In this document: piece by piece, positions 8,298-61,703 of the stretch
How the letters are laid out: each line of letters starts with the position of its first letter
Position numbering within the stretch: position 1 is the first letter of the stretch
Source of the DNA: a virus
Virus record (IMG/VR): IMGVR_UViG_3300030098_001779
Location: 18,412 to 82,411 of that record
Direction: 5' to 3' (one strand)
DNA: 64,000 nt
Program-made: the position numbers and the translations under genes
The notes under the pieces: model-generated
Told to the model about the DNA's origin: nothing
The model's input: the letters and a program-made list of their open reading frames with translations, nothing else
Database searches by the model: none

Positions 8298-8308
8298 GAG
8301 ATTGACAT

Positions 8309-11481: not shown

Positions 11482-11490
11482 TTAAGTAGT

Positions 11491-11517: not shown

Positions 11518-11536
11518 AAAACAAGGAGATTTTATT

Positions 11537-12562
11537 ATGGCATATATAGGTAATAAACCACCAGTTGTAGACAATTTAATAACTGATATAAAAATCGGAG
11601 AAGATGACGAAACTAAGATAGATTTCGCAGATGCTAATACTATAAACTTTCATGCGAATAACTCGAAAGAAATGGTATTAGTTGAAAACGCGTTGACTCC
11701 GGGAACAAGCGATGGTATTGCATTAGGTACGACTAGCCTTATGTGGTCCGATCTATTTCTTGCAAGTGGTAGTGTTATAAATTTAAATAACGGTGATGTA
11801 ACACTGACACACTCCGCTAATACCTTGACTGTAGCAGGAGGTACACTTGCGACAGCAGCATTGACTTCAAGCACTATAACTGCGAGTGGTATTATAAAAA
11901 CTGATGATACAACAGAAGCTACCTCTACTACAGATGGATCACTTCAGACAGATGGAGGTTTATCAGTAGTAAAAGACGCAGTATTTGGTGATGATGTCCT
12001 ATTATTGTCTGATAGTGCTGTGCTTAAATTTGGGGCTGATTCAGAAGCAACAATAACTCATGCAGATGACGCTGGATTAACATTTAACTCTACTACAACA
12101 TTTCAAGATGTGGTACTAGCAGATGATAAAACAATTACATTAGCAGATGAAGGTCAATTAATATTTGGGGATACTGCTCCATCAGCAGATCATAAAGCAA
12201 CTGGTGTTGTAGTTTCAATAGCATCAGGTGAGTCAGTAACAGCATTTAACGCTGTATATATTAGAAGCGATGGTGAAGTTGGTCCAGCAGATGCAGATGC
12301 AGCAACAAGTATGCCTGCAATAGGTGTAGCTTTAGAATCAAAGAGTGATGGACAAGCTACTAAAATATTAATATCTGGTGTATTAAGAGATGATACATAT
12401 AACTTTACACCGGGTGCAGATTTATTTATTGGTACAACGGCAGGAGAAATAACTGCAACTGCTCCATCAGGTTCTGGAGATACGGTACAGAAAATTGGAG
12501 TAGCTTTAACAGCAGACTCAATATATGTAAACTTTAATACAACAGAAGTATTATTAGCATAA
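11537..12562 (+). CDS. Tail fibre protein, cassette 2 gene A
   Basis: Paralog of 8309..9553. Confidence 0.7.
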   Translation: MAYIGNKPPVVDNLITDIKIGEDDETKIDFADANTINFHANNSKEMVLVENALTPGTSDGIALGTTSLMWSDLFLASGSVINLNNGDVTLTHSANTLTVAGGTLATAALTSSTITASGIIKTDDTTEATSTTDGSLQTDGGLSVVKDAVFGDDVLLLSDSAVLKFGADSEATITHADDAGLTFNSTTTFQDVVLADDKTITLADEGQLIFGDTAPSADHKATGVVVSIASGESVTAFNAVYIRSDGEVGPADADAATSMPAIGVALESKSDGQATKILISGVLRDDTYNFTPGADLFIGTTAGEITATAPSGSGDTVQKIGVALTADSIYVNFNTTEVLLA

Positions 12563-12571
12563 GGAGAACTT

Positions 12572-14965: not shown

Positions 14966-14970
14966 GAATT

Positions 14971-15258
14971 ATGATTTATTTTTATGCACAACCATTAGAA
15001 AATTACAAACACACAGATGCAAAAAGATTTAAACTTACAGGATATCCGGGTGGTATATATAAAGCAATAGATAACGCTGATCATGGTGGTGGCATAGAAC
15101 ATTGCACAGAATGGGTAGAAAAGTATGGCTACACAATTAAAACAAAAGCAGAAGCACAAGAATTAGTAAATGCTGGTATAATAACCTTAAATAACTTAAT
15201 GTCAGATGAAACATTAGGTGGGCAAACACCAGTACAAGGAGGGATAACACTTGAATAA
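14971..15258 (+). CDS. Hypothetical protein, cassette 2 gene C
   Basis: WVEKYGYTIKTKAEAQ resembles WLANNTGYTEKTETEAK of 10569..10868. Confidence 0.55.
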   Translation: MIYFYAQPLENYKHTDAKRFKLTGYPGGIYKAIDNADHGGGIEHCTEWVEKYGYTIKTKAEAQELVNAGIITLNNLMSDETLGGQTPVQGGITLE

Positions 15259-15874
15259 TTTTCCAATGTTAAAAAAAGAAGATAATAAATTCTTAAAAGA
15301 ATTAAAAGCAGAATTAGAAGATACGCATAACAAAGCACAGTTGTATAGAACTGAAACTGAAATGCGTTACTCTGTGCTTAATGACGGTAGATTTCCTACA
15401 AAGGCAAGCAAATATTGGCAAGCTGTAAGAGAACAAAATGTATTTTATACTAATCTTAGAATGGAAGCGTATCAATACAGAAAACTTTTAGTTGAAATAA
15501 AAAAACTAGAGAGAAGTATTGAAAAAGAAAGAGATAATTTAGAATTAGAATTACTAGAAATAGAATTAGAAGAAAAATTGTGGGATAAAGATGAAAGAGA
15601 AAGAATGGGTGCTGACAGAGTGAGAGAAATAGAACACTGGTCTAGAATAAAAAAAGAACTAGATGATGGCACATTTGATACACAAAATGTTGATACTCAT
15701 CAAAAAGAATCTCTTAAATTACAATTACAAGAAAGAGCTAAAAACTTGACACCGGGTAGTAGTCAAGGTGAAATGATAAATGTACTTGGTCCACTAAAAA
15801 CAATAGATGAAGACTTCAAAAAACAAATTGAAGCACAAGAAAAGGCGATGTTAAATGGCAAAAATAATAGTTAG
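15251..15874 (+). CDS. Coiled-coil protein, cassette 2 gene D
   Basis: Paralog of 10861..11481; TTG start. Confidence 0.65.
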   Translation: MNNFPMLKKEDNKFLKELKAELEDTHNKAQLYRTETEMRYSVLNDGRFPTKASKYWQAVREQNVFYTNLRMEAYQYRKLLVEIKKLERSIEKERDNLELELLEIELEEKLWDKDERERMGADRVREIEHWSRIKKELDDGTFDTQNVDTHQKESLKLQLQERAKNLTPGSSQGEMINVLGPLKTIDEDFKKQIEAQEKAMLNGKNNS

Positions 15875-38960: not shown

Positions 38961-39463
38961 TGCCTAAAAACTATCCTGAAGAAGTAAAATTAGCTGCTCT
39001 TGAATTATTTTTAGACAATAAAACAGGGGAACAAATAGCTACAATTGTAAATCAAGAGTTTGATCTTGAATTAAAAGCTCCAACTATATATGCTTGGGCT
39101 AAAAAGTATGATTGGAAAGGTGAAAATGCTTCTATGACAACAAAAGCAAAAGAGATAGTTAAAGAGAAACAAAGTCAAAGAATAGCTAGACTACAAAATG
39201 AACATCTAGATTCTTATGAAAAGATGAGAAAGAAAGCTGAATCTGAACTAGAATTTTTAGATTTTGAAAGAGCTTTTGAAGCAGTTAAAGCTATGGATAT
39301 TGGTATACAAGGTGAAAGAAAAACCATGGAAGGTATGGTAAACTTACAGTTTGTACAAGATGTTCTAAGTGTATTAGTAGAAGAAATTACAGATCCAGAC
39401 GTAATAACAAAAGTTGCAAATAGATTGCGAAGATTAGTTGCGGAGCGAGACGACATTGAATAA
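38960..39463 (+). CDS. Terminase small subunit (HTH)
   Basis: Y.EEVK..A..LF...IA...TIY.W.KKY.W; directly upstream of TerL. Confidence 0.7.
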   Translation: MPKNYPEEVKLAALELFLDNKTGEQIATIVNQEFDLELKAPTIYAWAKKYDWKGENASMTTKAKEIVKEKQSQRIARLQNEHLDSYEKMRKKAESELEFLDFERAFEAVKAMDIGIQGERKTMEGMVNLQFVQDVLSVLVEEITDPDVITKVANRLRRLVAERDDIE

Positions 39464-41105
39464 GAAAGATGAATTAGTTACATTTGATGATGCCTTTAGT
39501 AAATTAGCTGAAGGTATTACTACAGGTAATACATCATATCAAGTTGGTAGTTTCTATGAGTTTCTTAGAGATACATGGTCACAAAGTTTTGATAATCCTG
39601 AATACTTTAATGCTTGGCATGTTGGTGTTCTTGCCGATGATATTGAAGATTGTCTAGAAAAAGGTCTAAATTATGTAGCAGTGTTACCACGTTTTCATTT
39701 TAAATCTACTATTTTAGGGCATGCTTTCAGTGTTTGGAGACTATTGAAAGCTAAAAGAGACATGTCTATACTTTATTTATCTTATAGTGATGGTATGGCA
39801 AGATATCATTTACAAGAAATAAATAAAACAATAAATAGAAATCCACAATTGTTGGATATGATGGACAACCGATCTCCAAAAGCAGATTACTCATTTAGAT
39901 ACCATGTAAATAAAAAACCAGTAGAAATCATGCATGGTGGATTATTCTCTTTCAAAAGAGGTATGCATGTTAATGGTGCTTTAATTGCTGATGACGTATT
40001 GAGAGATCCTGAAAACCCTCTTAACACAGGTCAGATAACTAAGGTTGAAGATCATTTTATGACAGAAAGTTTATTCATCCCACTAAAAGGTGTACCTGTA
40101 ATTGTACTAGGTACTCCAATGATGCCGGGAGACTTACTGAGTAATTTACAAAAAGATGACAGATTTAAATCAAGAGTGTTGCCAGCGTTAGATCCAACAC
40201 CAGATAGAAGAGTATTGATGCCAGAACTATACAGTGAGAAGTGGCTACTAGATCAACAAAAAGCAAGACCTAAGTCGTTTGCTTCAGAGTTTTTGCTAGT
40301 ACCTCACTTCGCAACTGAAGCGTACTTTAGTGAAGATGACATTGTAAAATGTGAAGATGAAACACTAAAAAGCTATTCTGCACATCAAACTTTTAAAACT
40401 GAAGCAGGTGACCAATTGTTTGCAGGATTTGATGTAGGTAAAAAGAGACACCCATCTCATCTGGTTATATTTAGAAGAAGGGGTGATAAGATAGAACAAG
40501 TACATCAATCTTGGTTAGATGGATGGAGCTATTCAGATCAGATACAATATTTGAATGAAATAGCTGAAAATTACAACTTAGAGAAAGGTTACATAGATAA
40601 TACAAGAGGGGAACTAGAAGATAGAGGACTAGATCATGTCTGGCACTCTATGACATTCTCACAGAAAAGTAAACGAACTATGGCTCAGATTTTTGAAGAA
40701 TATGTATATTCTGATAATCTAACCTTAATAAAAGATGAAAGACAGAAACAACAAATATTATCTGTTAGTAATGACCTTAAAGCACCAGAGACTCCGATGG
40801 GGCATGGAGATGCGTTCTTCTCAATAGCTATGGCATTACAAGCAGCTTACGAAACAACCCTTTACAGATACGAAAGTTTAGGTAGTGCTACTGATTGGCT
40901 AGAGGCAGTATCACCTGAAGAAAAAAATACTGTAAAAGAACAAACTAAGTTACCTGACCTGTCAAAATGGACAGGAAATGAGTATAATAATAAGACAGAT
41001 AAAATACAAAAAGCCCCGAACCCAAACTGCGATGAGATGGTTTGTATGCCGAGCTTTTGGGTAGAAGAAAGAAATTTATGCCTGTACTGTGGGTACAGAG
41101 GATAG
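39438..41105 (+). CDS. terL: Terminase large subunit
   Basis: PRFHFKST Walker A variant, RG.H...LIADD Walker B, GTP motif III, GFDVG and HGDAF nuclease motifs. Confidence 0.9.
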   Translation: MRSETTLNKKDELVTFDDAFSKLAEGITTGNTSYQVGSFYEFLRDTWSQSFDNPEYFNAWHVGVLADDIEDCLEKGLNYVAVLPRFHFKSTILGHAFSVWRLLKAKRDMSILYLSYSDGMARYHLQEINKTINRNPQLLDMMDNRSPKADYSFRYHVNKKPVEIMHGGLFSFKRGMHVNGALIADDVLRDPENPLNTGQITKVEDHFMTESLFIPLKGVPVIVLGTPMMPGDLLSNLQKDDRFKSRVLPALDPTPDRRVLMPELYSEKWLLDQQKARPKSFASEFLLVPHFATEAYFSEDDIVKCEDETLKSYSAHQTFKTEAGDQLFAGFDVGKKRHPSHLVIFRRRGDKIEQVHQSWLDGWSYSDQIQYLNEIAENYNLEKGYIDNTRGELEDRGLDHVWHSMTFSQKSKRTMAQIFEEYVYSDNLTLIKDERQKQQILSVSNDLKAPETPMGHGDAFFSIAMALQAAYETTLYRYESLGSATDWLEAVSPEEKNTVKEQTKLPDLSKWTGNEYNNKTDKIQKAPNPNCDEMVCMPSFWVEERNLCLYCGYRG

Positions 41106-42996
41106 GAAGGAGATCACATTGGTCACGCAATTAACACAACAAGCAGAAACAGTTGCATCAAGTCGATACTATTTAAAGGACGAAAACAACGAAGTTATTG
41201 AAACAGCAGATGATATGTTTGAACGAGTAGGTCAAGCAATCGCAAAAGTAGACATGGAACTCTATGGTAAGTTAGCTGCTGAAGCAGCACTAACAGCTGT
41301 AGATTTTACAGACATGATGAAGAAATTAAAATTTGTACCTAACTCTCCTACTTTAATGAACGCAGGGACTGAACAAGGAACTTTATCAGCATGTTTTGTA
41401 TTACCTCTAAAAGATAGCATGGAAGATATTATGAAGACTGCTCATGATATAGCCATGGTACAAAAGTTTGGGGGAGGAACAGGATTTGCTCTTAGTGAAT
41501 TAAGACCAAGAGGTGACCGAATAAAAACAACTCACGGTATTGCATGTGGTCCAATACAAGTATTACAAACACTATCTAGGGTATCATCTATGATTACCCA
41601 AGGTGGTAAAAGAGATGGTGCTAATATGGCAGTGATGTCAGTATACCATCCAGATATATTAGAATTTATTGACTGTAAAAAAGTTGAAGGTGAAATACAT
41701 AACTTTAACATATCAGTAGGGGTAGATGCAGACTTTATGAAAGCAGTACAAGCTAATCTTAAATACCCATTAATCAATCCAAAGAGTAAACAAGTAGTGG
41801 GTGAGTTAAATGCTAGAGAAGTATTTGATAAAATAGTATATGGAGCTTGGAGAAATGGTGAACCGGGCATGATATTCTTAGACAATGTAAACAAAGATAA
41901 TCATGTAAAAGCAGAATATGGCGAAATGATTGCTACAAACCCTTGTGGTGAACAACCTTTACTAGGAAATGAGTCATGTAATTTAGGTTCTATTAATTTA
42001 GCAAAGTTTTTTCATGAAGATTACAATGATGTTGATTGGAGAGAACTAGAAAAAACTGTTAAAAGTGCTGTACATTTCTTAGATAATGTGATAGATGCTA
42101 ACAAATATGCAACCCCTGAGATAGAAAAAATGACTAAATCTACAAGAAAAATAGGTTTAGGCGTAATGGGATTCGCAGATTTGCTAATTCAGCTAAAAAT
42201 TAAGTATAATAGTATAGAAGGGCGTAAATTAGGTAAAGATATTATGTCCTTTATAAGAGACAAAGCTGATGCAGAGTCTAAAAAAATAGCTAATGAAAGA
42301 GGTACTTTTCCTGCATGGAACGAAAGTGACTATGGAGAAGATGAAAAATACAGAAATGCTTGTAGATTAACAGTAGCTCCAACAGGAACTATCTCTATGT
42401 TAGCAGATACTTCTAGTGGTATAGAGCCTACATTTGCTCTAGCTTGGAAAAAGTCAAACATACTAGAAGGACAGACTTTGTATTATGTAAATAAATACTT
42501 TGAGGCAGATGCTAAAAGACATAACTTCTATTCAGAAGATTTGATGGAGCATTTATCTCAAGGCGGTTCTTTACAAACAAGAGAAGATGTGCCACCATGG
42601 GCGAAGGATATATACATCACTGCTCCTGAGATATCTGCTGAGGATCATGTAGAGATGCAAGCAGCTTTCCAAGAGGATTGTGATTCAGGTATATCAAAAA
42701 CAATTAACTTCCCTAATGAGGCAACTATCGCTGATGTTGAAGCTGCTTATGTACATGCTTGGAAGCTAGGTTGTAAAGGTATTACAGTCTACAGAGCTGG
42801 TAGCAGACAGATTGAAGTCTTGGTAAAAGGAACTGAAGAAAAAGAAGAAAACGATAGTACAGAACAAATGAGTTTCTTTGATATGGTTGAGACACCAGAA
42901 TCAACACCTGAGTGTTGTGAGTCTCCTAACATAGTTATGGAGTCTGGCTGTGAAACTTGTAAAGTCTGTGGATGGAGTATGTGCCATGTCGCTTAA
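41089..42996 (+). CDS. nrdJ: Ribonucleotide reductase class II, adenosylcobalamin-dependent (likely start TTG 41119)
   Basis: [52 protein letters not shown]-terminal C..CG.S.C; no small subunit nearby. Confidence 0.9.
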
Positions 42997-43219
42997 TAGA
43001 ACCTTTAGTATTTTTACTAATATAATAGAGAAAGCAAAAAAGAAAAAATCATCAGTTAATCAAGCTGGTAATTACACTAAACCTGCTATGAGAAAAAGGC
43101 AGTTCGCTGCTATCAAAGCTGGTAGTAAAGGTGGTGCTCCCGGACAATGGTCTGCTAGGAAAGCACAATTACTTGCACAAAGATATAAGAAAGCTGGTGG
43201 AGGATATAGGAAGAAATAA
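42950..43219 (+). CDS. Basic phage protein, DUF5872-like N-terminal part (likely start 42986)
   Basis: NYTKP..R....AGSKGG.PGQWSARKAQLLA..YKKAGGGY. Confidence 0.65.
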   Translation: MKLVKSVDGVCAMSLNRTFSIFTNIIEKAKKKKSSVNQAGNYTKPAMRKRQFAAIKAGSKGGAPGQWSARKAQLLAQRYKKAGGGYRKK

Positions 43220-43494
43220 TGGCTAAGACTGAAGGACAAAGATCTCTTAGCAGATGGACTGATCAAGATTGGGATTACGTTACTGCTAGAGATAAAAAGA
43301 AACCTAAAAGTAAAAGAGGTAGATATTTACCTAAAAAAGTACGTCAAGGTCTAACTGCGTCACAGAAAGCTGCTACTAATCGTAAGAAACGAAAAGCTGG
43401 TGGTGTAGGTAGTCGTGCTAAATATTCAAAAAAAGTAGCAAGTAGAGTTGGAGCAATTAGCAAACTCTTAAATTATGTAAAAGGACTCAGATAA
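43219..43494 (+). CDS. Basic phage protein, DUF5872-like C-terminal part
   Basis: Q.SL..WT.QDW...GRYLPKK...L...KAATNR.KR. Confidence 0.65.
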   Translation: MAKTEGQRSLSRWTDQDWDYVTARDKKKPKSKRGRYLPKKVRQGLTASQKAATNRKKRKAGGVGSRAKYSKKVASRVGAISKLLNYVKGLR

Positions 43495-43497
43495 TAC

Positions 43498-43527
43498 TTG
43501 ACAAAGCTACGTCAAATATGATATAAT
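43498..43527 (+). promoter_or_regulatory. Sigma70-type promoter TTGACA-N18-TATAAT with TTGAC-N8-GTCAA palindrome
   Basis: ttgacaaagctacgtcaaatatgatataat. Confidence 0.8.
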
Positions 43528-43558
43528 AGAGTAAAGTATAGAAAACAGGAGGTCAATT

Positions 43559-44011
43559 ATGGCTATTGGAAGTTTACTAAGAGACAGAGATATACAGTAT
43601 GTTGCAATCAAAGATGATGCAACTAAAACATGGAGAATATTAGATACATGGAGCCCAGCATTAAAGGATTTTGATTCTGAAGATGATATTCCAGATGATA
43701 GTGCTGCAGTATCTATTATAACAGAAGCTGCATTTATTGCATTGATTAAGGAAGCAACTCGTTTAGGTGTGTTAGAAAATGCTTCTTTAGGCGGTGGCGA
43801 AGTAAATGATGAAGATTTACTTGCATTAGAGCGTGAAAATCAAGAATTACACGAAAAACTGTCGAAAATGGAGCAAAATGTAGTAAAATATAAAGAGGAA
43901 CCAAAAAAACCTCAATACTCAGAAAATTATGCGATAAAGGATAGAGCTATTCAAGCTATTATAAATCTTGCAGGTATGGCTGATGTAGAAAAAATAAGTG
44001 AGGATAAATAA
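43559..44011 (+). CDS. Hypothetical protein
   Basis: AGGAGG RBS. Confidence 0.65.
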   Translation: MAIGSLLRDRDIQYVAIKDDATKTWRILDTWSPALKDFDSEDDIPDDSAAVSIITEAAFIALIKEATRLGVLENASLGGGEVNDEDLLALERENQELHEKLSKMEQNVVKYKEEPKKPQYSENYAIKDRAIQAIINLAGMADVEKISEDK

Positions 44012-44013
44012 TT

Positions 44014-45675
44014 ATGGCAAAACTATCAGAATTTCTTCCAGATGTTCCAGAGGTTGCTAAAACAATTGCTAGTTTAAACGAACAAATTAACATGTTGCAG
44101 TTGTCAAAAGCAGCAGGTGATACCGGACAAGCTCCGACTATCGGTCTTGATCATGTTGTAAACACATGGGTCAGACATCAGATGGCATATCGTCAACAAC
44201 TTGTAATGGATTTACAGACTATTACTTATTCTGTACAAGAAATACGAGGTCCGTTGACACATATCACAGGTGAAGTATTTAGACGTGGTATGAAGATAAA
44301 GCCTAAAGTAAAAGATCCTGATAAATCACAATTAGTAAGATTTAGTAAGTTCCTCACTGATTCAAACGTATTTGACCAAAGTCTTGAAGAAGTTTTAAGA
44401 CAATTTCACTATGATTTAAACTCTATTGATGATGCCTTTTTATATTTAGCAAAAGAATATGAAGAACTACCTAATGGTAAACTAGGTGCAAAAGTAAAAG
44501 AAATCAGAAGGTTGAACCCTGCATTAGTAGAATTTGACTTAGATGCAGCAGGTTTACCTAAAAATGCACATTTCTTATGTCCTATAGACAGGACTGATGT
44601 CGCTGAAGAACCGGGTACGTCTAAAAAAGGTTACAAGAGAATACCTGCAATGTATAAGTATTACCACAGAAACCAACACATGTACTTAGCAGATTCAGAA
44701 GTAATACATCTATCTAAGTTCTCACCATCTGAAACTTATGGATGGTCACCTATATTAACAGTATTTGAAAAAGCCTTAACACTTATAGGTATGGATAAAA
44801 ACTTATACCGATACTTCTTTGAAAGAAAGATGCCTGCTTCTATGATCATGGTAACTACTGATGATCCTGAAAGTTTAAGAAGGGAAAGAGCACATATAGC
44901 GGCTCAAACAAGACTTGACCCTAACTTTATACCTATGGTAGCAGTATCATCAAGAAACAATAGAGGTAGAGTTGACATGGTAAGATTGTTCCACACATTA
45001 CAAGAGATGGATTACTTACCAGTAAAACAAGAAATAAGAGAAAGAATTGCATCTATGTGGGGAGTATCTCCTACATGGCAAGGAACACCTGAAGCATTTG
45101 GTGGAATGTCAGCAACTACACAAAACTTAACAGTGATGAGTAGAGTGGTAGAATCAGATCAAAGACTATTCCATGAAAAAGTATTCCCAGAATTGTTAAA
45201 AGCGTTTGGTGTAACTGATTATGAAATAGAATTACCTAGACCTGAAGAAAAAGCAGATGCAACTATAATCTCTCACACTCAACAAAAAGTAGCTATGGCA
45301 AGTCAATTAAGTCAATTAGGATTCACTGTTGAATTAAAAGAGAAAAATGAAACTGACATGCTAGAGATTGACTTCGTAATAAGTGGTGAACCAGTTCCAA
45401 CTGCTAAGATGCAAGGTGAACAACAAGCTATGCAGTTAGAACAACAGCAACAACAGATTGAACAAGCTAAACAACAAGCTGAAATGGCTCAGATGCAAGC
45501 AGTTCTTCAAGAAGAATCTGAAGAGCCTACAGGCGAAGATGATGTTGAAAAGATGGAGAAAGGATATCCATTTAAAAACCTAGATGATTTCTTAGACTAT
45601 GATCCTGAAGAAAAATCAGAAGATGATGAGTATTCTCATATCGAAGAAGTCGATGATGAAGAACATGATGACTAG
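44014..45675 (+). CDS. Portal protein
   Basis: D....DDAFL, EVIH...YGWSPI, N..YFF....P, QEMDY....IA..WGV.P portal motifs; Q/E-rich tail. Confidence 0.85.
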   Translation: MAKLSEFLPDVPEVAKTIASLNEQINMLQLSKAAGDTGQAPTIGLDHVVNTWVRHQMAYRQQLVMDLQTITYSVQEIRGPLTHITGEVFRRGMKIKPKVKDPDKSQLVRFSKFLTDSNVFDQSLEEVLRQFHYDLNSIDDAFLYLAKEYEELPNGKLGAKVKEIRRLNPALVEFDLDAAGLPKNAHFLCPIDRTDVAEEPGTSKKGYKRIPAMYKYYHRNQHMYLADSEVIHLSKFSPSETYGWSPILTVFEKALTLIGMDKNLYRYFFERKMPASMIMVTTDDPESLRRERAHIAAQTRLDPNFIPMVAVSSRNNRGRVDMVRLFHTLQEMDYLPVKQEIRERIASMWGVSPTWQGTPEAFGGMSATTQNLTVMSRVVESDQRLFHEKVFPELLKAFGVTDYEIELPRPEEKADATIISHTQQKVAMASQLSQLGFTVELKEKNETDMLEIDFVISGEPVPTAKMQGEQQAMQLEQQQQQIEQAKQQAEMAQMQAVLQEESEEPTGEDDVEKMEKGYPFKNLDDFLDYDPEEKSEDDEYSHIEEVDDEEHDD

Positions 45676-45683
45676 GAGATAAG

Positions 45684-48600
45684 ATGACTTGGTTTGAAAA
45701 ACAAGGTAGAGAAGGTCTAGTTCCCAAGAAAATTACTGAAACTGTACGCCCAAAGCAAGGTCAAACTTACGAAAGACTAACTACAGTTTATGTAAAACCT
45801 GAAGTCCCTGAGTTCGTTAATGATTGGTTAAAGAACTTTGATTCGCAGGTTCCTGTATATTTAGTAGGTGGTTCTGTAAGAGACAGCATATTAGGTAAGG
45901 CTCCAAAAGATATAGATGTAATTACATTTAAACCTAAAGAAGATATAGAGACTAGATTAAAAACGTCTGATACTAAATTTTATCAAGGTGGTAAAAACTT
46001 ACCTAATTTAGTTACAGCTAATTTAGGCAATAATCAACTTATAGATATTATTAGTGTAGATGGTGATATAGAAAGTGAATTAGTTAGAAGAGATTTTACT
46101 ATAAATGCTATGGCACAAAGACCAGATGGTGAAATAATAGATCCTTTTGGTGGTAGAGAAGACTTAAAAAATGGTGTTTTAAAATCTCCAAAAGGTGATA
46201 GTGATAAAGTTTTTAGTGAAGACCCTATTAGAATGTTAAGAGCAGCTAGATTTATAGGAGATTTAAATCTTAAACCAGATAATTCATTAACAGATAGTTT
46301 GAAAAAACAAAAAGACTTACTAGCTGATATGCCGAAAGAAAGAATAGGTATGGAATTTGGTAGGATTATATACTCTAAAGATCCAGTATCTGCGTTAAAA
46401 TTCTTAAAAGAAAACGACTTATTAAAATATATTGATCCAGCTTTACAAAGAACAGTAGGTTTTGTACAAAATTTAGAGGGACATGATTATGATACTTGGA
46501 ATCATACACTAAAATCATTAGAGCATCATATAACTAAAGACAAAGATAAACCTGATCTAGCAACTAGACTAGGTATATTATATCACAATGTGGGAAAACC
46601 TCCTGCGTCAAATTCAAATAATAGTGATTTTAAAAACTATGAAAACATAGGAGCTCAGATTGTAGAGGAAAGTTTAAATAACTTACGTTTTCCATCTGAT
46701 ATAGTAGATGTTGTTAGAAAATTAGTTCAACATCACACATCACCTAGAACTGCAAAAACAGAAGGTGATCATAGAAGAGTACAACTTAAATTAAGAGAGA
46801 ACCTAAATAAACTTAACTTCGTAGCAACTGCTCATGAGGTAGGTAAAGAAGGTAATATAAATGCTGATACTGATCATATCGTATCTTTCCAAGACAGAAT
46901 TGATAAGCTAGATCCAATAGATGTTGAAAATGATAGAGTAAATTTATCTCCTCTAACTGGTAAAGAAATCATGGATGAGTTAGATATTGTGCCTAATAGA
47001 AAAGGTGGTGGTGAAAGAATAGGTAAGATAAAAGACTTTTTAAATCAACTTGTAATTGAAGGCGAGTTAAAACAATCAGATAAAAAAGGAGCTATCAACA
47101 GAGCTAGACAATATCATTCTACATTTACTCAAAAATCTAATAACGTATTAAAGAGCTGGTTAAATATCTTGAAGGCTGAAAAAGATGATGGTTTAAAATT
47201 TGATGCTGATAATAACATAAGTTGGGAAGTTGATAAAGTAGCTCATAGAGAAGCAATAGAAAAGAAACAAAGTGAATTATTTGATGGTAAAAGAAGAAAT
47301 TTAAAATTAGTCCCAAAAAAACTTAGAGATAAAAATGGTAAGGAAGTTACACGATGGTGTAGACCGGGTTGGGAAAATGTACCTCAATCTGAAGGTGGTA
47401 TGGTTACAGATCCTAACTCTATGTATTTCGGAAAGTTTCCCATATCCTCTCATGGACATGATCCTTTAGATCCTAAGTTTAGAGAAAAAAAAGTTAGATT
47501 ACCTCATGTAAATGATGATTTTGATAAACATAAAAACTTTACAGGACATACAGATGAAGAACTAGAACGTGCAAAAAAAGATGGTAATGCGTATAAATCG
47601 GTGCCAGCTAATGTTCATGAACTACATATAAGCCACGATCCGTTTGCTGAATTTCAACATAAAGCTAAAAATAAAGAGAAAGGTACTTTAAGTAGAACTC
47701 AAGGTCCGGGTTATACACATCCAGAAATTAAAGCATTAAAAGATGATCAAAAAGAATATAGAATAAAAGCATTAAGAAAACAGATGCCTTTATTAAATAA
47801 AGAGTTAGAGACTCAATATAACAGTGATAAACCTGATGTAAGAGCTTTAATGACAGGTATTATGATGGAAACAGGGCTTAGGATAGGAAATCCTGATGAT
47901 ACATTTAAGAGCATAAAAGACGCTAAAAAAGCAGAATCATATGCAACTTCTACATTTAAAAAGAAACATATATCAGTAACAGATGATACAATTAAATATA
48001 ATTTTCCGGGCAAAATGAAGACTATACAGTCTGGAACTATAAAAAATGCTGGATTAGCAAAAGGTTTAGAAACTATTTTAAAAAATAAAGAAGAAGATGA
48101 TTTTGTGTTTGAACAGAATGGTAAGTTTTATGATGAAGGTGCTGTTCAAAAATATCATAATGCAGTTATGAAAGTTAAACAGGGTTATGTAATTAAAAAT
48201 CATAGTTTTAGACATTCAAAAGCAACTAACATGACTATTAAAAACATTAGTGACTTTGTGTCTAAAGCAAAAGGTAGTCTAGGTTTTATAAAAACAGAAG
48301 GAGATTTTCAAGATTTTCAGAAACGAATGGCTACTGATGCAGCAAAACAATTAAATCATCCAGATAATAAGGCAGAGTTTTGGGATACAACTATGACTTT
48401 AGATTCGTACATCCTTCCAAATGTGTTTGGATATACTAAAGAAGGTAAGTATGTCTTATTAAAAGATGAGGTAGATAAAGAAAATACTCAACTTTCTTCT
48501 GACTATCAAAATAAAATGCAAGAATTAACAGGATCTAAGAAGTATAATAAAGTAGCTATACAAACTGTACAACTAGATAAAGCATATGATGGTAGAGAAT

Positions 48601-49001
48601 TTGATCCTACTAGAAAAAAAGAGAAAGACTTAGATACATATGGTGAAAACAGGAAAGATAAAGCCGAAGATAGAGACTTAGGATTAGACAAGATACCTCC
48701 ACATATGAGACCAAGACCTAAATATTACGAAGCTAAATTTGCAAAAACATGGATAGAGGATTTAGCTGATAAAGGTTATCAGTCTCCTATGGTAAAAAGT
48801 TCCAATGGTGATGGAACTAAGATATGGTTTATAGATGGAGGAATAGATTATGTAGCAGATGTTGGAGCAACTGGAGTAAGGCATGTTGAGAAGGCAACTT
48901 TTAGACCACTAGCATCTAATGCAACTAATACAATAAGTTATGATCCAACAGGTAATAACATGAGGGAGCCTGATGATAATGAGGAGGAACTCTATGAGTG
49001 A
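45684..49001 (+). CDS. Fusion: class II tRNA nucleotidyltransferase (probably CC-adding, degenerate HD domain) + type IB DNA topoisomerase + C-terminal domain
   Basis: VGGSVRD, DIDV, RRDFTINAMA, DPFGG.EDL, EDPIRMLRAARF, ERI..E; then ETGLRIGN, YATST..KKH, FPGK, HSFRH, LNH, SYI. Confidence 0.85.
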   Translation: MTWFEKQGREGLVPKKITETVRPKQGQTYERLTTVYVKPEVPEFVNDWLKNFDSQVPVYLVGGSVRDSILGKAPKDIDVITFKPKEDIETRLKTSDTKFYQGGKNLPNLVTANLGNNQLIDIISVDGDIESELVRRDFTINAMAQRPDGEIIDPFGGREDLKNGVLKSPKGDSDKVFSEDPIRMLRAARFIGDLNLKPDNSLTDSLKKQKDLLADMPKERIGMEFGRIIYSKDPVSALKFLKENDLLKYIDPALQRTVGFVQNLEGHDYDTWNHTLKSLEHHITKDKDKPDLATRLGILYHNVGKPPASNSNNSDFKNYENIGAQIVEESLNNLRFPSDIVDVVRKLVQHHTSPRTAKTEGDHRRVQLKLRENLNKLNFVATAHEVGKEGNINADTDHIVSFQDRIDKLDPIDVENDRVNLSPLTGKEIMDELDIVPNRKGGGERIGKIKDFLNQLVIEGELKQSDKKGAINRARQYHSTFTQKSNNVLKSWLNILKAEKDDGLKFDADNNISWEVDKVAHREAIEKKQSELFDGKRRNLKLVPKKLRDKNGKEVTRWCRPGWENVPQSEGGMVTDPNSMYFGKFPISSHGHDPLDPKFREKKVRLPHVNDDFDKHKNFTGHTDEELERAKKDGNAYKSVPANVHELHISHDPFAEFQHKAKNKEKGTLSRTQGPGYTHPEIKALKDDQKEYRIKALRKQMPLLNKELETQYNSDKPDVRALMTGIMMETGLRIGNPDDTFKSIKDAKKAESYATSTFKKKHISVTDDTIKYNFPGKMKTIQSGTIKNAGLAKGLETILKNKEEDDFVFEQNGKFYDEGAVQKYHNAVMKVKQGYVIKNHSFRHSKATNMTIKNISDFVSKAKGSLGFIKTEGDFQDFQKRMATDAAKQLNHPDNKAEFWDTTMTLDSYILPNVFGYTKEGKYVLLKDEVDKENTQLSSDYQNKMQELTGSKKYNKVAIQTVQLDKAYDGREFDPTRKKEKDLDTYGENRKDKAEDRDLGLDKIPPHMRPRPKYYEAKFAKTWIEDLADKGYQSPMVKSSNGDGTKIWFIDGGIDYVADVGATGVRHVEKATFRPLASNATNTISYDPTGNNMREPDDNEEELYE

Positions 49002-50265
49002 TAATATGTACTTAAATATACTTAAACAAAAGTATAAAGGTAAAAGAATTAAAAGTCCAAAAGGTGGATTAACAGCTGCTGGGCGTAAATATTTTAAAAG
49101 AAAAGAAGGTGCTAATCTCAAACCGGGTGTAAAAGGAAAAGCAAATACACCTGAAAAGAAAAGAAGGAAAGGTAGCTTTCTTACTAGATTCTATACTAAC
49201 CCTAGAGGTCCAATGAAGGATAAGAAAGGGCGACCAACAAGATTAGCTTTGGCAGCTAGAGCTTGGGGTGAAGCTGCACCTAGTACAAGACAACAAGCTC
49301 AAAAACTAGCAGCTAAAGGTAGAAGAATGTTGGATAGATATCAAGCATCTAAAAAAACTAAAAAAGCCATATTTAAAGAAGGTGGTGGAGCTGGTGGCGG
49401 CGGTGGAGCTGCTACTTCAGGAGGTTTTGGAAGTGGTGGTGGAACTGTATTCACATCTACTAACTCAGGTATTTTTACTCCTACTTATGGTGGCGGAGGC
49501 TATAAAAGAAGAAAGAATCATATTAGAGAGATAAAAAGAAAGAAGGATAAAAGAAGTGGTATAGAAAGATTATCTAGATTTCTTAGAGAATATACCCCTG
49601 AAAAGAAATCTATAAATGCTACAAAAGAACTAACAGAATTAATTAAATCTGTGACTAAATCACAATATCCTGCTGGTAGAGGGTATGGTGGTAATTTAGG
49701 CATGAAAGTTTTAGATTGGAAAAAACCTAATACAGATGAAGAACCTCCTAAAGTTTCTGAATTTAAAGGAAAAAAACAAGATGAAGATAATAATGATGCA
49801 GTTATTGAGCAGAATTATATGGAACAAAAGATCAAAAATTTAAAGGATGAATCTAGAAAAGAAGGTAGAGATCAAGCTACTGAAGATGAAGTTGTATCTG
49901 CTGCGAATCCGGGATTAGTTACGTTAAAATCTTATTCAAGTGGTGCAACAAGTAGTTTATCACCTACAATGAGAGAGACTAATCCATACAAACGTAGTGG
50001 AGATAAAGATAAAGTTGATGACAATCCAGAAATAGCGAAAGATAAATTAACAGATCTTATAGATAAATTTCTAGATATAGAAAAATATAGTGGTTATAGT
50101 GCCGCAACTACACAAACTACTCTACCAGAAAGAGAGATTCTAGAAGATAAAAAACAAGAGATACAAGTTTTAGATGATGACGATGTAGAGGATCAGGAAG
50201 TCCAACCTCCTAAAGGTCAGAAAAAAACTTATTCAACCGGAGACGGTGGTGGATATAGCATGTAA
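48973..50265 (+). CDS. Basic/acidic low-complexity protein with DUF6321-like N-terminus (likely start 48994); putative internal head protein
   Basis: K.PKGGLTAAGRKYFKRKEGANLKPGV...RRKGSFL.RF; Gly-rich segment; hydrophobic-x-K motifs. Confidence 0.6.
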   Translation: MIMRRNSMSDNMYLNILKQKYKGKRIKSPKGGLTAAGRKYFKRKEGANLKPGVKGKANTPEKKRRKGSFLTRFYTNPRGPMKDKKGRPTRLALAARAWGEAAPSTRQQAQKLAAKGRRMLDRYQASKKTKKAIFKEGGGAGGGGGAATSGGFGSGGGTVFTSTNSGIFTPTYGGGGYKRRKNHIREIKRKKDKRSGIERLSRFLREYTPEKKSINATKELTELIKSVTKSQYPAGRGYGGNLGMKVLDWKKPNTDEEPPKVSEFKGKKQDEDNNDAVIEQNYMEQKIKNLKDESRKEGRDQATEDEVVSAANPGLVTLKSYSSGATSSLSPTMRETNPYKRSGDKDKVDDNPEIAKDKLTDLIDKFLDIEKYSGYSAATTQTTLPEREILEDKKQEIQVLDDDDVEDQEVQPPKGQKKTYSTGDGGGYSM

Positions 50266-50459
50266 TGAATAAAGGTAGATTTATTTATACGCCAAAAGTC
50301 GGGGCGTTAGATAGTAAAGGTGACATACACTTTGACTACGAAATAGACGACAAACAAATAAAAGTTTATGCTACAAAGTATAATCTACAGACACATACAT
50401 TTACAAGAGTAGATGAACCTATTTTTGTAAAAGAGCTAAAGGGGGAGCAAGATGTCTAA
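50265..50459 (+). CDS. Hypothetical protein
   Basis: TAATG coupling to the upstream gene. Confidence 0.5.
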   Translation: MNKGRFIYTPKVGALDSKGDIHFDYEIDDKQIKVYATKYNLQTHTFTRVDEPIFVKELKGEQDV

Positions 50460-51597
50460 ACTTTTTAAATCAATACTATTACTAGCGATGCTACCACTCC
50501 TATTTTTAGGATGTAATAGTGTAGAGGAAACACAAGAATCAAAAATTGGAATGATTCTAGTAGGTCCAAAAAACGATAAGGGTTGGTCACAAGCCCACTA
50601 CGAAGGTGGTGAATATGCGGCATCTAAATTAGGTGGTGAGATGATCACAGTGGATATGGTAAATCCTGCTGACTCACCAGATTTAACAATACCTTCTATC
50701 GCTGAAGATATGATATCACAAGGTGCAACTATCATATTTGCAACATCAGATGATATGAAAGATGGTATATTAGAAGCTGCTGAGAAGTATCCAGACACTG
50801 ATTTCGTCTGGTCTACAGGTGATAGTGCTTTAGTCGTAGGTAGAGATTACCGAAGCGAATTAAAGAATGTATCTAATGTGATGGGTAAAATGGAATATGG
50901 ACAAATGATAGCAGGATGTGCTGCAGCAATTAAATCTAAAACTGGTAAGATAGGATTCTTAGGACCATTAGTCAATGATGAAACAAGAAGATTAGCAAAC
51001 GCTACTTACTTAGGAGCAAAGCATTGTGCCGAAGGAGACATAGAATTTGATATAACTTGGATTGGTTTCTGGTTTCACATACCGGGTATGACTTTAGATC
51101 CTACACAAGTAGTTAATGACTTCTATGATTCAGGTAAAGATGTTGTGATCTCACACATTGATACTACAGAAGCAGTGGTTGTTACTGGTCAAAGAGCAGA
51201 GAAAGGTGAGGATATTTGGGTAGTTCCTTATGACTATAAAGGAGCTTGTGAACAGGCACCTACAAGATGTTTGGGAGTAAACTACTTTAACTGGGGACCT
51301 GAATATTTAAGTCTAGCTCAAAAAAGTAGGGATGGAGAGTTTACTAATGAGTGGCTATGGATAGGTCCATATTGGAAAGACTTGGAGTCCTCTATGGTAG
51401 GATGGAACTATGGAGAAGGATTAGATGCTGTAGAAAAAGGTAGAGTATCTAACTTTATAGAACAACTAAAACTAGGATTAAATCTATTTACAGGACCACT
51501 TAACTTTGAAGATGGCTCAGTATACTTAGAAGATGGAGAGATTGCATCAGATATTGACATCTGGTACACTCCACAATTACTAGAAGGTATGAAATAG
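50452..51597 (+). CDS. BMP-family (PnrA/Med-like) ABC transporter substrate-binding lipoprotein
   Basis: Signal peptide with FLGC lipobox; VGP.ND.GWSQAH.EG; SKTGKIGFLG; NA..LGA; WIG.W; FNWGP.Y; F.GP. Confidence 0.85.
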   Translation: MSKLFKSILLLAMLPLLFLGCNSVEETQESKIGMILVGPKNDKGWSQAHYEGGEYAASKLGGEMITVDMVNPADSPDLTIPSIAEDMISQGATIIFATSDDMKDGILEAAEKYPDTDFVWSTGDSALVVGRDYRSELKNVSNVMGKMEYGQMIAGCAAAIKSKTGKIGFLGPLVNDETRRLANATYLGAKHCAEGDIEFDITWIGFWFHIPGMTLDPTQVVNDFYDSGKDVVISHIDTTEAVVVTGQRAEKGEDIWVVPYDYKGACEQAPTRCLGVNYFNWGPEYLSLAQKSRDGEFTNEWLWIGPYWKDLESSMVGWNYGEGLDAVEKGRVSNFIEQLKLGLNLFTGPLNFEDGSVYLEDGEIASDIDIWYTPQLLEGMK

Positions 51598-51629: not shown

Positions 51630-51937
51630 ATAATAAGAACACTGGAAATGTGTGTGATAAATGCAACGGATTCATGCGTTTTGATGAAGATAATGATTTG
51701 AAATGCATGAATTGCGGAAGAACAATTATTTTAAGGAAAGCAAGGAGCAAACATGTGGAACAAAGGCGAAACAAAAATTCCAACTCAAGCACAGAACGAG
51801 TTGATAAAACGGAGACAAGCGGGAGCAACGTGGACAAGTCTATCGGAGTGGCTAAAAGCGACATACGGGATAGATATACACCGAACCAACATTCAAAGAT
51901 GGTACGACAAAGAGGTTTATTTAGATCAAGAAAATGA
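51620..51937 (+). CDS. Zinc-ribbon protein overlapping the next gene (true start probably near 51650, after the promoter)
   Basis: CDKC...CMNCG. Confidence 0.5.
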   Translation: MIKYNKNTGNVCDKCNGFMRFDEDNDLKCMNCGRTIILRKARSKHVEQRRNKNSNSSTERVDKTETSGSNVDKSIGVAKSDIRDRYTPNQHSKMVRQRGLFRSRK

Positions 51938-53123
51938 AATGATTGATCCTGATTTAGATCCTAACTACCACGTTAAGATGGGTAAAAAAGCTGAGACTTA
52001 TAAAGCAGAAGCTAAATATTTTAAGAAACTATATGAGACTACAATTAAAGATCAAGCTAAACAAGAGATCTTTGAAGAGTCTATAATGAAGTTAGCACCT
52101 GCATTTAGTAAAGCAAAAAAAGTTAAAATCCGAAAGCCTTCAGGTAAAAGAACTGGTGACAGTGTTCAAAGTATGATTGCTCCTTTAACTGACACCCATG
52201 TTGGAGATAGAGTTGAAAGTGATCAGATGTCAGGTTTGAATCACTACAATATTGATATCTTCAACAGAAGGCTTTATGGATGGGCGAATCAAGTATTAAG
52301 TTTAGCTGAAATGAGAAGAAATACTTCTGAGGTAGGCGAACTTGTAGTTCCAATGCTAGGTGATATGATCAGTGGAGACATACACGAAGAACTAGCTAGG
52401 ACAAATGTAGATAACTGCATGGGACAAATGATCAGAGGAGCTAATCTTATTGCTCAATCATTAATGTTCCTTGCTCCACACTTTGATAAAGTAAGAGTAC
52501 CATGTGTTGTAGGTAACCATGGAAGAATGACTAGGAAACCCCCGATGAAAGATAAGCATCAAGATTGGGATTACATGTTGTATCAATGGATTGCTGCATT
52601 TTGCAGGAACCAAAAGAACATAGAGTTCCATATTCCAAAGACATTCTCTACTACTATTGAAGTTGCTAACAGGCAAATACTACTAACACATGGAGACTTC
52701 ATTAATGGAGCAGGTAGTGGTACTGCTATAACAAAAGGTATACTAAACATGAGGAATGTTCTTCAATTTAGAAGAGGATTAGAGGATGAGATTAGGAATC
52801 TTGATATGACAGAAGGTATAAGCCTTCTAGATGAATCAGGAATGTCTACATACTTTGACTCAGTTTTGATGGGACACTTCCATAGGATAGATGAAATCGA
52901 TATCGGAACAGGTAACATACATATATGTGGTTGCATGAAGGGTGGAGATGAGTTTGCAATGCAGAGAGTACAGGCAATTAATAAGCCAAGACAGCTAGTA
53001 TTGTATTACCACCCAAAATATGGGGAAATTGGGAAAGAAATCATCTATTTAAACAGATATGATGGGGTAAATAGTGAATTTAATGACATTTTACCGGAAG
53101 TTTGGAGCCAAAACTTAGTATAA
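51753..53123 (+). CDS. Calcineurin-like metallophosphoesterase with N-terminal HTH
   Basis: DTHVG, GDMISG, GNHGR, THGD, GHFH; N-terminal ATWTSLSEWL...IHRTNIQRW. Confidence 0.85.
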   Translation: MWNKGETKIPTQAQNELIKRRQAGATWTSLSEWLKATYGIDIHRTNIQRWYDKEVYLDQENEMIDPDLDPNYHVKMGKKAETYKAEAKYFKKLYETTIKDQAKQEIFEESIMKLAPAFSKAKKVKIRKPSGKRTGDSVQSMIAPLTDTHVGDRVESDQMSGLNHYNIDIFNRRLYGWANQVLSLAEMRRNTSEVGELVVPMLGDMISGDIHEELARTNVDNCMGQMIRGANLIAQSLMFLAPHFDKVRVPCVVGNHGRMTRKPPMKDKHQDWDYMLYQWIAAFCRNQKNIEFHIPKTFSTTIEVANRQILLTHGDFINGAGSGTAITKGILNMRNVLQFRRGLEDEIRNLDMTEGISLLDESGMSTYFDSVLMGHFHRIDEIDIGTGNIHICGCMKGGDEFAMQRVQAINKPRQLVLYYHPKYGEIGKEIIYLNRYDGVNSEFNDILPEVWSQNLV

Positions 53124-60443: not shown

Positions 60444-61703
60444 ATGACTACAATGACTGCAGAAAAAATAGTAAATACTAACAGAGACATGTTTCAGAGT
60501 GTTTCTGAGGATGCAACCATCTCTTTATTGGAAAAGGCAGAAGGTGGGAAAGTAACAGTTAAGGACATCACTAATGCATTAGATGAATTTAAAAGACTGT
60601 ATAAAGCTGGAATAGCATCACCTGCAGAAATTATGACATTACACCGAGCTTTCCCAGATAATGAAGTTTATCAAAAGGAAGCAAGGAAGCTGGAAAAACG
60701 AGAAATCGAACCAGTAGTATTAGGAGGTCCCGCCTCTGTTGAATTAGTAGACAGAGAGGGACACCTGATCACAACAGATGCTCTAGGAAGGGCATTTGAA
60801 AACTACATGAAAAGTTTTAGAACTAGGAACGCTATGGTTCTACACTCTGATGTCCAAGTAGGTTGGGCTTTACCAGCTTACATCAATAAGTCTGGACAGA
60901 TATTTAAGAGTGGTGTAAATGAAAATGGTCTATTCTTTATTACTGAAATGAGAAATGATACAAAGATCTCTGACAGAGTAAAGGAACAGATAAACGAAGG
61001 AAAGCTAAAGTCTTATTCTATTGCTGGATCAGCAACTAAGATGCAGAATATGACTAAAGGCTTACAATCTTACATGCAAGTAGATGACTTGGAACTCGCT
61101 GAAGTAACAGTATGTGAAAAGGGAGTGAATCAAGGAGCATCTTTTGACTTATTAAAATCAGAACAACCAGCACAGAAATCATGTGCTGATGGAAGCTGTC
61201 TAACAAAGTCAGCTCCTGAACCAAGAGAGGAAATTAATATGGTATGGAAATCAAATGGAAACGTAGACTTCACCCAGACTTTCTTTAATTGGCTTTCAAA
61301 AGAGAATGGGAAAGCAACTGATCCTTTAGTAGGAGATAAAATGTTTGCTGTTCTTGAAAACTTCAGAGGAAGGGAAAAGGAACACCACAACCAGTTAGAT
61401 AGACAAGGCTTTCCAAAGGAACTAGATCCTGAATTTGCTAGAGTAACACCAGTAATGGAAAACCCTAAATACTTTCCATGGGTTGTAGGAGAAGCAGGTT
61501 CTAAACTTGGACCAAAGAGGTATCAAGGCGGATCGCTACCAGTAACAAAAGCCTTCTTAGAGTGGATGGAAAAGAGAGATAAAGGAGATGCCTTTGCTAT
61601 CGCTACTGCTCAAGCTAAAAAGGAAGGCTTCAAAGACTTTTCTGAAGGAAGCGAAGGAAGGGAAAAAAGGAACGAACTAGCTGAAAAATTAAAGGAAAGC
61701 TAG
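60444..61703 (+). CDS. Prohead maturation protease (HK97/XkdF-like) with long extensions
   Basis: G.ASVELVDREG..I, MVLH...VG, I..G.LKSYSIAG, L.L.EVTVCE.G.N..A.F. Confidence 0.85.
   Translation: MTTMTAEKIVNTNRDMFQSVSEDATISLLEKAEGGKVTVKDITNALDEFKRLYKAGIASPAEIMTLHRAFPDNEVYQKEARKLEKREIEPVVLGGPASVELVDREGHLITTDALGRAFENYMKSFRTRNAMVLHSDVQVGWALPAYINKSGQIFKSGVNENGLFFITEMRNDTKISDRVKEQINEGKLKSYSIAGSATKMQNMTKGLQSYMQVDDLELAEVTVCEKGVNQGASFDLLKSEQPAQKSCADGSCLTKSAPEPREEINMVWKSNGNVDFTQTFFNWLSKENGKATDPLVGDKMFAVLENFRGREKEHHNQLDRQGFPKELDPEFARVTPVMENPKYFPWVVGEAGSKLGPKRYQGGSLPVTKAFLEWMEKRDKGDAFAIATAQAKKEGFKDFSEGSEGREKRNELAEKLKES

Follow-up and report, generated by a model that had tools for sequence, protein, structure and literature searches.

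A post-portal gene of a marine tailed phage predicted to join a CCA-type nucleotidyltransferase and a topoisomerase IB to a detached portal C-terminal domain

What a protein with two unrelated enzymatic domains does directly behind a phage portal gene, and how it came to stand there, is the question raised by a locus in a 64,000-nucleotide (nt) stretch of viral DNA (hereafter the window; positions 18,412 to 82,411 of the 82,411-bp IMG/VR virus record IMGVR_UViG_3300030098_001779, for which CheckV gives a completeness of 100%). The source is a tailed phage from marine metagenomes. In the window, positions 45684-49001 of the plus strand form a single stop-free reading frame of 1105 amino acids (aa), and its product would be one protein of three modules, namely a CCA-type nucleotidyltransferase (NTase), a topoisomerase IB (TopoIB) and a detached portal C-terminal domain.

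An earlier sequence-only reading of this DNA had described one fusion gene directly behind the portal gene, and had named a sequencing error hiding a stop in the linker as its possible undoing. The open reading frame (ORF), the portal matches and the syntenic relatives bear out the former, and the latter is ruled out. A homologue search with residues 500-1105 recovered six full-length relatives of 1081-1144 aa with 41-74% identity over that half, and IMG/VR holds 21 loci (10 full length; all syntenic, in the order TerL, ribonucleotide reductase (RNR), small genes, portal, fusion, DUF6321 gene). At least 10 independent metagenome contigs keep the fusion gene, their identity to it being 57-89%. 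In addition, a contig of 3147 nt from an independent study covers 46281-49427 with 7 differences, crossing both module junctions. Because syntenic full-length relatives exist and this independent contig bridges both junctions, a hidden stop or an assembly chimera is excluded and the fusion is genuine. Contigs of a metatranscriptome run lie over 46059-47207 at 90-99% identity; DNA carry-over is possible and they are not counted as expression. The literature searched for TopoIB, phage, CCA and virion contained no paper on a CCA-TopoIB fusion, in keeping with the earlier statement that none had been described, although the automatic name given by the Joint Genome Institute to one relative already lists both activities.

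Residues 1-498 are assigned to the class II tRNA nucleotidyltransferases, closest to CCA-adding enzymes. The class had been read from the sequence before, and Pfam, PHROG and PDB matches together with intact NTase motifs agree with it. PHROG 2244 'tRNA nucleotidyltransferase' matches this half at 3.5e-49 and CCA-adding enzymes in PDB match it at 3e-28, and GGSVRD...DID, RRDFTINA, DPFGG and EDPIRMLR align residue for residue with PDB structures (6ibp, 1miv). Motif A (GGSVRD...DID) and motif B (RRDFTINA, aa 135-142) lie within the head domain and motif D (EDPIRMLR, aa 179-186) just beyond it, and all three are invariant across relatives. The NCBIfam ranking places CCA tRNA nucleotidyltransferase (5.4e-49) before PcnB (2e-29), and CCA addition is the best reading over A, CC or poly(A) addition, as far as specificity can be judged from such profiles. 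Like known class II CCA enzymes (phrog_2244; 6ibp, 1miv; Escherichia coli Cca with HD), this half has the head/neck/body layout and the GGxVRD...DxD, RRD and EDxxR motifs; unlike them, it carries an H-N dyad, is joined to a TopoIB and a portal-type module, and is encoded by a phage without tRNA genes. Stand-alone homologues of the CCA part are common in large phages.

The His-Asp dyad of the HD-like domain is degenerate. H301-N302 is found in the window protein and six close relatives, with N302 invariant in the clade, and the dyad is retained in distant fusions (LLHDVGKP in P0011, P0014, P0066 and P0040; SHDLGKP in P0072). The cyclic-phosphate/phosphatase side activity of E. coli-type Cca has probably been lost. 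ARAGORN detected zero tRNA genes over the whole 82.4-kb genome; the enzyme would therefore not serve to mature phage tRNAs. Class II CCA enzymes rebuild the 3' ends of tRNAs, and those of the host would be what it acts on.

The motifs from which a poxvirus/bacterial-type TopoIB with five catalytic positions had been proposed for the second half are all in place: after the linker TQKSNNVLKSWLNILKA (aa 482-498) come GLRIG at 731, FPGK at 774, HSFRH at 840 (R843), LNH at 890 (H892) and SYI at 908 (Y909). Profile, fold and alignment support the proposal, and residues 499-965 are accordingly classed, on sequence and model, as a small bacterial/poxvirus-type TopoIB. With the window sequence alone, PDB TopIB structures are reached weakly (E ~0.2), and Pfam Phage_integrase matches at 2e-4 (21.4 bits, below the cutoff of 27.1). 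Two close relatives and several distant ones match PF01028 (P0007/P0008 at 1e-7, P0011 with 39.5 bits and P0014 with 53.5 bits, the cutoff being 23.7), and a phmmer search of 1.8 billion representatives linked residues 680-825 to ~100 PF01028 proteins. A profile of 7 relatives matches four TopoIB structures at 5e-7 to 2e-4, and an extended profile matches Deinococcus TopIB at 1e-48 with the pentad residues in the catalytic columns. In seven relatives none of the five catalytic columns varies; across the 34 sequences of alignment A2, R, K and R are invariant and Y is kept in at least 90%.

The AlphaFold2 (AF2) model of this part (pLDDT 89.6, pTM 0.84) points the same way. Its best 21 PDB matches in Foldseek (E 8e-11 to 9e-8; 250-346 aligned columns) are TopoIB without exception and cover both TopoIB domains. 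The identity of a tyrosine recombinase or telomere resolvase was considered and rejected, the best recombinase in Foldseek standing at E 3e-3, more than 10^4-fold weaker than TopoIB; the family profile found no recombinase below E 0.1. TopoIB of the bacterial/poxvirus type relaxes DNA without ATP or Mg, and DNA relaxation through a 3'-phosphotyrosyl intermediate is a plausible activity here, predicted from the intact R-K-R-H-Y site. The closest structural counterparts are the TopIB of Deinococcus radiodurans (2f4q/3m4a) and of variola/vaccinia (2h7f/1a41), which share the two-domain size class and the aligned R-K-R-H/N-Y pentad (Foldseek E 8e-11 to 6e-10), at an identity of just 12-18%. Unlike them, the fusion TopoIB is set inside a larger protein, is extended at its N-terminus by ~140 aa that include a hairpin leader and a segment rich in His, and has an H-to-Y spacing of 17 residues versus 9. 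At R-3 it has His840, an arrangement shared with the HxxR of tyrosine recombinases.

A leader of ~30 aa (G-LVPKK...G...T.[YW].[KR]P) stands ahead of each enzyme module. The LVPKK hairpin was considered as a genome-wide address tag and dismissed: a hidden Markov model (HMM) finds just two copies in the genome, both within the fusion protein, and no copy in the more distant cargo proteins (reversed-order or giant relatives). Ahead of the TopoIB N-domain lies a His/Asp-rich stretch (~47450-47650, aa ~590-655), a possible metal-binding site in which H608, D611, H616, H648 and D652 are invariant. No other part of the cassette varies as much (17-55% identity, aa 561-640 bin), and a related 'VPHPEHG' motif is present in TopoIB-only relatives.

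The remaining part of the protein, aa 966-1105, had gone unrecognised in the sequence-only reading and supplies the new element of the locus. By phmmer, residues 960-1102 form an independent family, found in many proteins of 85-215 aa and at the extreme C-termini of larger ones; in its carrier proteins the module is always C-terminal. Three of the larger carriers are portals of the window portal's own PHROG, and from this relationship the module is taken as homologous to the C-terminal domain of related portals. Its folded core (aa ~1020-1074, nt 48741-48905) comprises one helix and four strands and is the only confident part of the AF2 model (pLDDT 85-92); the core consensus reads TW..L..KGF..P.IKE..DG..MWF...G.DYVA.L...GV..VEKATF, followed by an acidic tail. 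Neither Pfam nor PHROGs holds a family for the module. Foldseek against PDB gave a best E of 0.057, with CdiA-CT, RelE and HigB-type small RNase folds as weak top rows; a BECR/PBECR label was dropped, as these matches are insignificant, and low-overlap subtilase fragments from the ESM Atlas were treated as chance. The idea of a MuF-type head protein found no footing, there being no match to Phage_Mu_F PF04233 (Pfam to E<=1, PHROGs). Acidic tails end both the core-only portal (45430-45672, ...EEVDDEEHDD) and the detached module (48960-48998, ...DDNEEELYE), and in fused portals one acidic tail only is seen, at the module end.

Where does a portal domain on an enzyme come from? The HMM of the C-terminal module finds no copy in the window portal, whereas most related portals carry one. 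Of the 235 module-bearing loci in IMG/VR, 80 were inspected. Among 70 further loci the module lies inside the portal ORF in ~50, where it makes up the final ~130 aa of portals 640-700 aa long; in 4-5 it is a small gene directly behind a core-only portal, and in 9 it is the tail of a ~560-aa TopoIB protein directly behind the portal. Wherever the module is not part of the portal ORF, be it a small gene or the tail of a TopoIB or CCA/TopoIB protein, the portal immediately before it is almost always core-only. In three loci (L106, L107 and L109) the portal is followed by TopoIB-CCA-module, with the enzyme order reversed, and in L110 a portal with module is followed by TopoIB-CCA without one. The empty site is seen in L121, an 87-kb syntenic relative in which portal plus module is directly followed by the homologue of the DUF6321 gene, free of enzymes. 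A series can thus be laid out: portal+module (empty); portal/small module gene; portal/TopoIB-module; portal/CCA-TopoIB-module, as in the window; portal/TopoIB-CCA-module; and portal+module/TopoIB-CCA. Because the module-bearing relatives form this series and the window portal lacks the module, the enzymes are placed at an insertion point in the Q/E-rich linker between portal core and C-terminal domain. The comparison of this locus in relatives for swapped cargo domains, proposed with the sequence-only reading, was therefore positive.

In every portal structure solved, the C-terminus points into the capsid. Because the module appears to be a portal C-terminal domain and such C-termini face inward, it would take both enzymes along into the procapsid, to the portal or its vicinity, and both would enter the host along with the phage DNA as a small 'polyvalent'-type cargo protein. 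Capsid loading through the module and injection with the DNA are argued by analogy, and we put the chances of this cargo reading at about even.

Several results weigh against it. Pfam PF01028 has no match on the window protein at E<=1, and the CCA part stays below the NCBIfam equivalog cutoffs (best TIGR02692, 167 bits versus 438.8 needed). The module fold found no significant counterpart (VIA-align wide, Z <=5.4; BFVD, best E 0.057), and in L110 the module is off the cargo. The head-gene cluster also holds the RNR large subunit, a PnrA-like gene and an SbcD-like nuclease, all non-structural, and for this reason position alone is weak evidence for packaging. A prediction of the complex between the window portal and the C-terminal module scored 0.00, which is evidence neither way.

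The mixed company in the head-gene cluster also speaks for a cytoplasmic protein, made late, whose enzymes were recombined into the 3' part of the portal gene; the portal or head would need the module in trans, unless it is kept on other, unrelated grounds, and the enzymes would serve metabolism or counter-defence. The module-free TopoIB-CCA of L110 fits this account, as do cultured jumbo phages with a stand-alone TopoIB, which in PaBG lies amid DNA-metabolism genes. Yet a module needed at the portal would take the fused enzymes along, purifying selection on the module is strong wherever it occurs, and the enzyme genes are confined to one slot in all relatives. We consider a purely cytoplasmic role unlikely.

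The distribution of the enzymes bears on a different role. TopoIB plus module without CCA is the commonest cargo form at the slot (9 loci, 7 protein clusters), and CCA without TopoIB is rare, seen in one cluster (P0072). Such a bias would suit an ATP-independent swivel acting on phage DNA at the portal, against packaging or ejection twist, rather than a host-directed effector, with the CCA enzyme as a later add-on; the module links the enzyme to the portal context, and the TopoIB family is cofactor-free. The recurrent pairing with CCA, 2H and LigD 3'-phosphoesterase (LigD-PE) domains would be left unexplained by a swivel, as would the hypervariability of the cassette among phages with near-identical portals, and this explanation is regarded as improbable.

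That hypervariability is sharply bounded. Against the window, L001 shows 100% nucleotide identity over most of 43200-51450 (94-96% at ~45900-46350, and a few later bins at 98-99%), and over ~47100-48600 its identity is 54-90%. In L006 the flanks are mostly 93-100% identical and the interval between ~47100 and 48600 only 42-62%. A contig of a 2024 marine run has another sequence in place of 47236-47628; it is shorter by 18 nt and thus keeps the frame. The portal is 65-92% identical among these phages. Because cassette identity collapses while portal and flanks stay conserved, the TopoIB is read from these alignments as a mobile, fast-diversifying unit in a conserved frame, swapped as a whole between near-identical phages. 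Such replacement is as expected of a gene in an arms race.

Both edges of the cassette fall on conserved junctions, the left on ...NILKA (aa 498) and the right on LDKA (aa 964-967). These junctions also bear on the earlier proposal of a polyprotein, in which a head protease would cut at Lys junctions and free CCA and TopoIB within the capsid, a sub-case of the cargo reading. The conserved L-x-K-A motifs ILKA (495-498) and LDKA lie exactly at the boundaries of modules and recombination, LLKA-like motifs begin many free-standing module proteins, and a head-maturation-protease-like gene is present in the window (60444-61703). However, the motif is short in a protein of 11.6% lysine, no cleavage specificity is known for this protease, and the conservation of the junctions is equally explained by helix ends or by homology for cassette exchange. 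The K strings that had been listed (LLKD, LDKA, FAKT, MVKS, VEKA) are all present, but as cleavage sites they fare poorly, three of the five lying inside the C-terminal module: MVKS and VEKA fall within its folded core, and FAKT just ahead of the core, inside module 966-1105, in an indel that is absent from some relatives. A K-site pattern defined post hoc occurs 10 times versus 4.3 +/- 2.0 in shuffles; since it was derived from the earlier examples themselves, the excess is not evidence. A polyprotein cut into two enzymes thus finds no real support, only ILKA and LDKA standing at module boundaries, and cleavage at these sites is considered a rather poor prospect.

The two enzymes co-occur in both orders and in independent architectures, which raises the further thought of a joint action of both on RNA, the TopoIB-like domain for instance resealing or processing, by transesterification, tRNA ends with a 2',3'-cyclic phosphate and a 5'-OH. 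Vaccinia TopoIB is able to cleave at ribonucleotides and to join RNA 5'-OH ends. Giant phage proteins headed by TopoIB relatives add end-healing domains (2H, LigD-PE) as well as CCA, with ART-PolyVal matching weakly, below the Pfam cutoff, and the end-healing HD dyad is lost in the window clade. On the other side, the domain shares its fold, its N-terminal DNA clamp and its pentad with ordinary DNA TopoIB, no RNA-specific feature was found in it, and TopoIB at this slot also occurs without any RNA enzyme; action on RNA is deemed very improbable. As to the giant proteins themselves, L103 (IMGVR_UViG_3300042731_004037, 7866-15770) and L104 are jumbo-phage contigs of 162 kb and 206 kb whose proteins of 2634 aa and 1290 aa start with this TopoIB family, and in a giant relative of 2589 aa Pfam adds CCA/HD, 2H (Acb1-like) and LigD 3'-phosphoesterase domains. 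P0072 (965 aa, metagenomic) joins the module to a zincin-like N-terminus (weak ATLF/Peptidase_M90) and CCA/HD with no TopoIB, and is the only CCA-without-TopoIB architecture seen.

A broader form of the cargo reading may be put forward tentatively. The portal C-terminal domain could be a general detachable cargo adaptor and the linker a hot spot, entered by TopoIB first and then by CCA, peptidase and others; any enzyme inserted there would be loaded at the portal and injected, and TopoIB and CCA, paired repeatedly and in either order, could share a joint early function. The pair might then be a 'first-aid kit' that needs few cofactors and counters host nucleases directed at tRNA and incoming DNA, possibly with an RNA activity of the TopoIB domain included; this too is advanced as a possibility on the doubtful side.

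The nearest known systems are the polyvalent proteins that Iyer, Burroughs, Anand, de Souza and Aravind (2017, PMC5512222) described from phages and conjugative elements. Their paper predicts packaging and injection for effector domains joined to portal or MuF proteins, and its main text names no TopoIB and no CCA-adding enzyme. As in those proteins, unrelated enzymatic domains are found here in one polypeptide, its gene lies beside portal and terminase, and at least two effector-type domains (CCA NTase and TopoIB) stand among packaging genes. Unlike them, the fusion has two enzymes only and no MuF, its anchor is the portal's own C-terminal domain, and the locus shows an explicit series from empty to filled sites. 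The window protein is a minimal two-enzyme version in an 82-kb phage. What appears new, as far as the alignments tell, is the tail being the portal's own C-terminal domain, the empty-to-filled series and the sharp cassette boundaries.

In cultured phages TopoIB is scarce, with ~15 of 50,697 GenBank phage records, all jumbo, encoding unfused proteins of ~560-606 aa. These enzymes (PaBG gp84, Lu11, Rhizobium RHph_N46, Xanthomonas PhiXhv) are of PF01028 type, as is the canonical relative P0042, and the fusion protein's own C half matches only the five Rhizobium phages among them. The setting of the PaBG gene differs from the window's post-portal slot. To our knowledge, the poxviruses are the one group in which TopoIB has been linked to virions: they package the enzyme, and the one carried in vaccinia particles helps early transcription.

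Megablast of the locus against GenBank phages gave no match, so none of them is close at the DNA level. For the portal, the only relatives among these phages are tailed viruses of haloarchaea (HCTV-5, HVTV-1; 25-26% identity). L121 (contig CAYVWD010000055.1) was binned in a metagenome-assembled genome (MAG) of 'Candidatus Nitrosopelagicus', and a 3.9-kb relative in an alphaproteobacterial MAG. The idea of a Magrovirus or other archaeal virus was set aside in view of a family A DNA polymerase (PolA), a DnaB-like helicase and strong Shine-Dalgarno (SD) sites, which point to a bacterial host.

The coordinates of the features are collected in Table 1. The GC content is ~35%, and the plus strand carries nearly every long ORF, among them all genes annotated in this analysis. 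Besides the polymerase and helicase, the genome encodes a tail tube, a major head protein and the head-protease-like gene. TerL (39438-41105) lies upstream of the portal gene, whose TAG stop occupies 45673-45675; the ATG of the fusion gene at 45684 is 8 nt beyond it. Metabolic genes are found amid the head genes, with the RNR large subunit in the terminase-portal interval (41089-42996), and a homologue of the PnrA/Bmp-like nucleoside-binding lipoprotein and the SbcD-like nuclease (50452-51597, 51753-53123) after the post-portal genes and before the gene of the major head protein. The DUF6321 gene begins with an extremely basic stretch, KYKGKRIKSPKGG; its homologues have 291-436 aa and are also variable in sequence.

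Table 1. Features of the fusion gene and its immediate neighbours (window coordinates)
Feature	Position	Strand	Evidence or remark
Portal gene, 553 aa, core only; Q/E-rich linker, then acidic tail	44014..45675	+	phrog_18178 2.4e-31; Pfam Phage_portal 2.5e-07
SD sequence AGGAGA, overlapping the portal stop, 4 nt ahead of ATG 45684	45674..45679	+	direct sequence reading
Whole fusion gene, predicted CCA-type NTase + TopoIB + portal-type C-terminal module, 1105 aa	45684..49001	+	
N-terminal leader, aa 9-42 (GLVPKK...TVYVKP), first copy, near-invariant in relatives	45708..45809	+	alignment A1
NTase head domain, aa 58-166	45855..46181	+	Pfam PF01743 PolyA_pol 67.5 bits (cutoff 23), 1.8e-18
RNA-binding neck/body segment of CCA and poly(A) enzymes, aa 199-254	46278..46445	+	Pfam PF12627 PolyA_pol_RNAbd 33.2 bits (cutoff 22), 4.3e-08
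HD-like domain, aa 289-371, degenerate dyad H301-N302 (LYHNVGKP)	46548..46796	+	Pfam HD 23 bits (cutoff 22), 1e-4
Junction 1, aa 482-498, ...NNVLKSWLNILKA, conserved, left edge of swappable cassette	47127..47177	+	
Predicted TopoIB cassette, aa 499-965: helix + LVPKK hairpin, His-rich variable segment, N-domain, catalytic domain	47178..48578	+	
Second leader-hairpin copy, aa 538-566, LKLVPKKLRDKNGKEVTRWCRP	47295..47381	+	beta-hairpin at model residues 45-61
Codon of putative catalytic R733	47880..47882	+	aligns with Deinococcus TopIB R137, ...RVG motif; invariant
Codon of putative catalytic K777 (FPGK)	48012..48014	+	aligns with Deinococcus FKGK, variola FVGK; invariant
Codon of putative catalytic R843 (HSFRH)	48210..48212	+	aligns with Deinococcus DFRTW, variola DLRTY; invariant
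Codon of H892 (LNH)	48357..48359	+	aligns with Deinococcus LGN, variola VGH; invariant in 7 relatives
Codon of putative nucleophile Y909 (SYI)	48408..48410	+	aligns with Deinococcus SYI; invariant in relatives
C-terminal module, aa 966-1105: charged helical lead-in, folded core, acidic tail	48579..48998	+	
Downstream gene, 430 aa, very basic DUF6321 N-terminus, 29-nt overlap with fusion gene	48973..50265	+	Pfam DUF6321 1e-29

In a whole clade of abundant marine phages, one post-portal slot is the place of a TopoIB, which a tRNA 3'-end enzyme usually accompanies. From the pairing of CCA and TopoIB it would seem that damaged tRNA 3' ends and the topology of the DNA count during the first minutes of an infection. 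The natural series, with the site empty, with TopoIB only, with both enzyme orders and with the module left on the portal, offers ready-made genetic controls. If the module is a loading adaptor, it would give a simple, testable rule for how enzymes are loaded into the capsid and a handle for loading foreign proteins.

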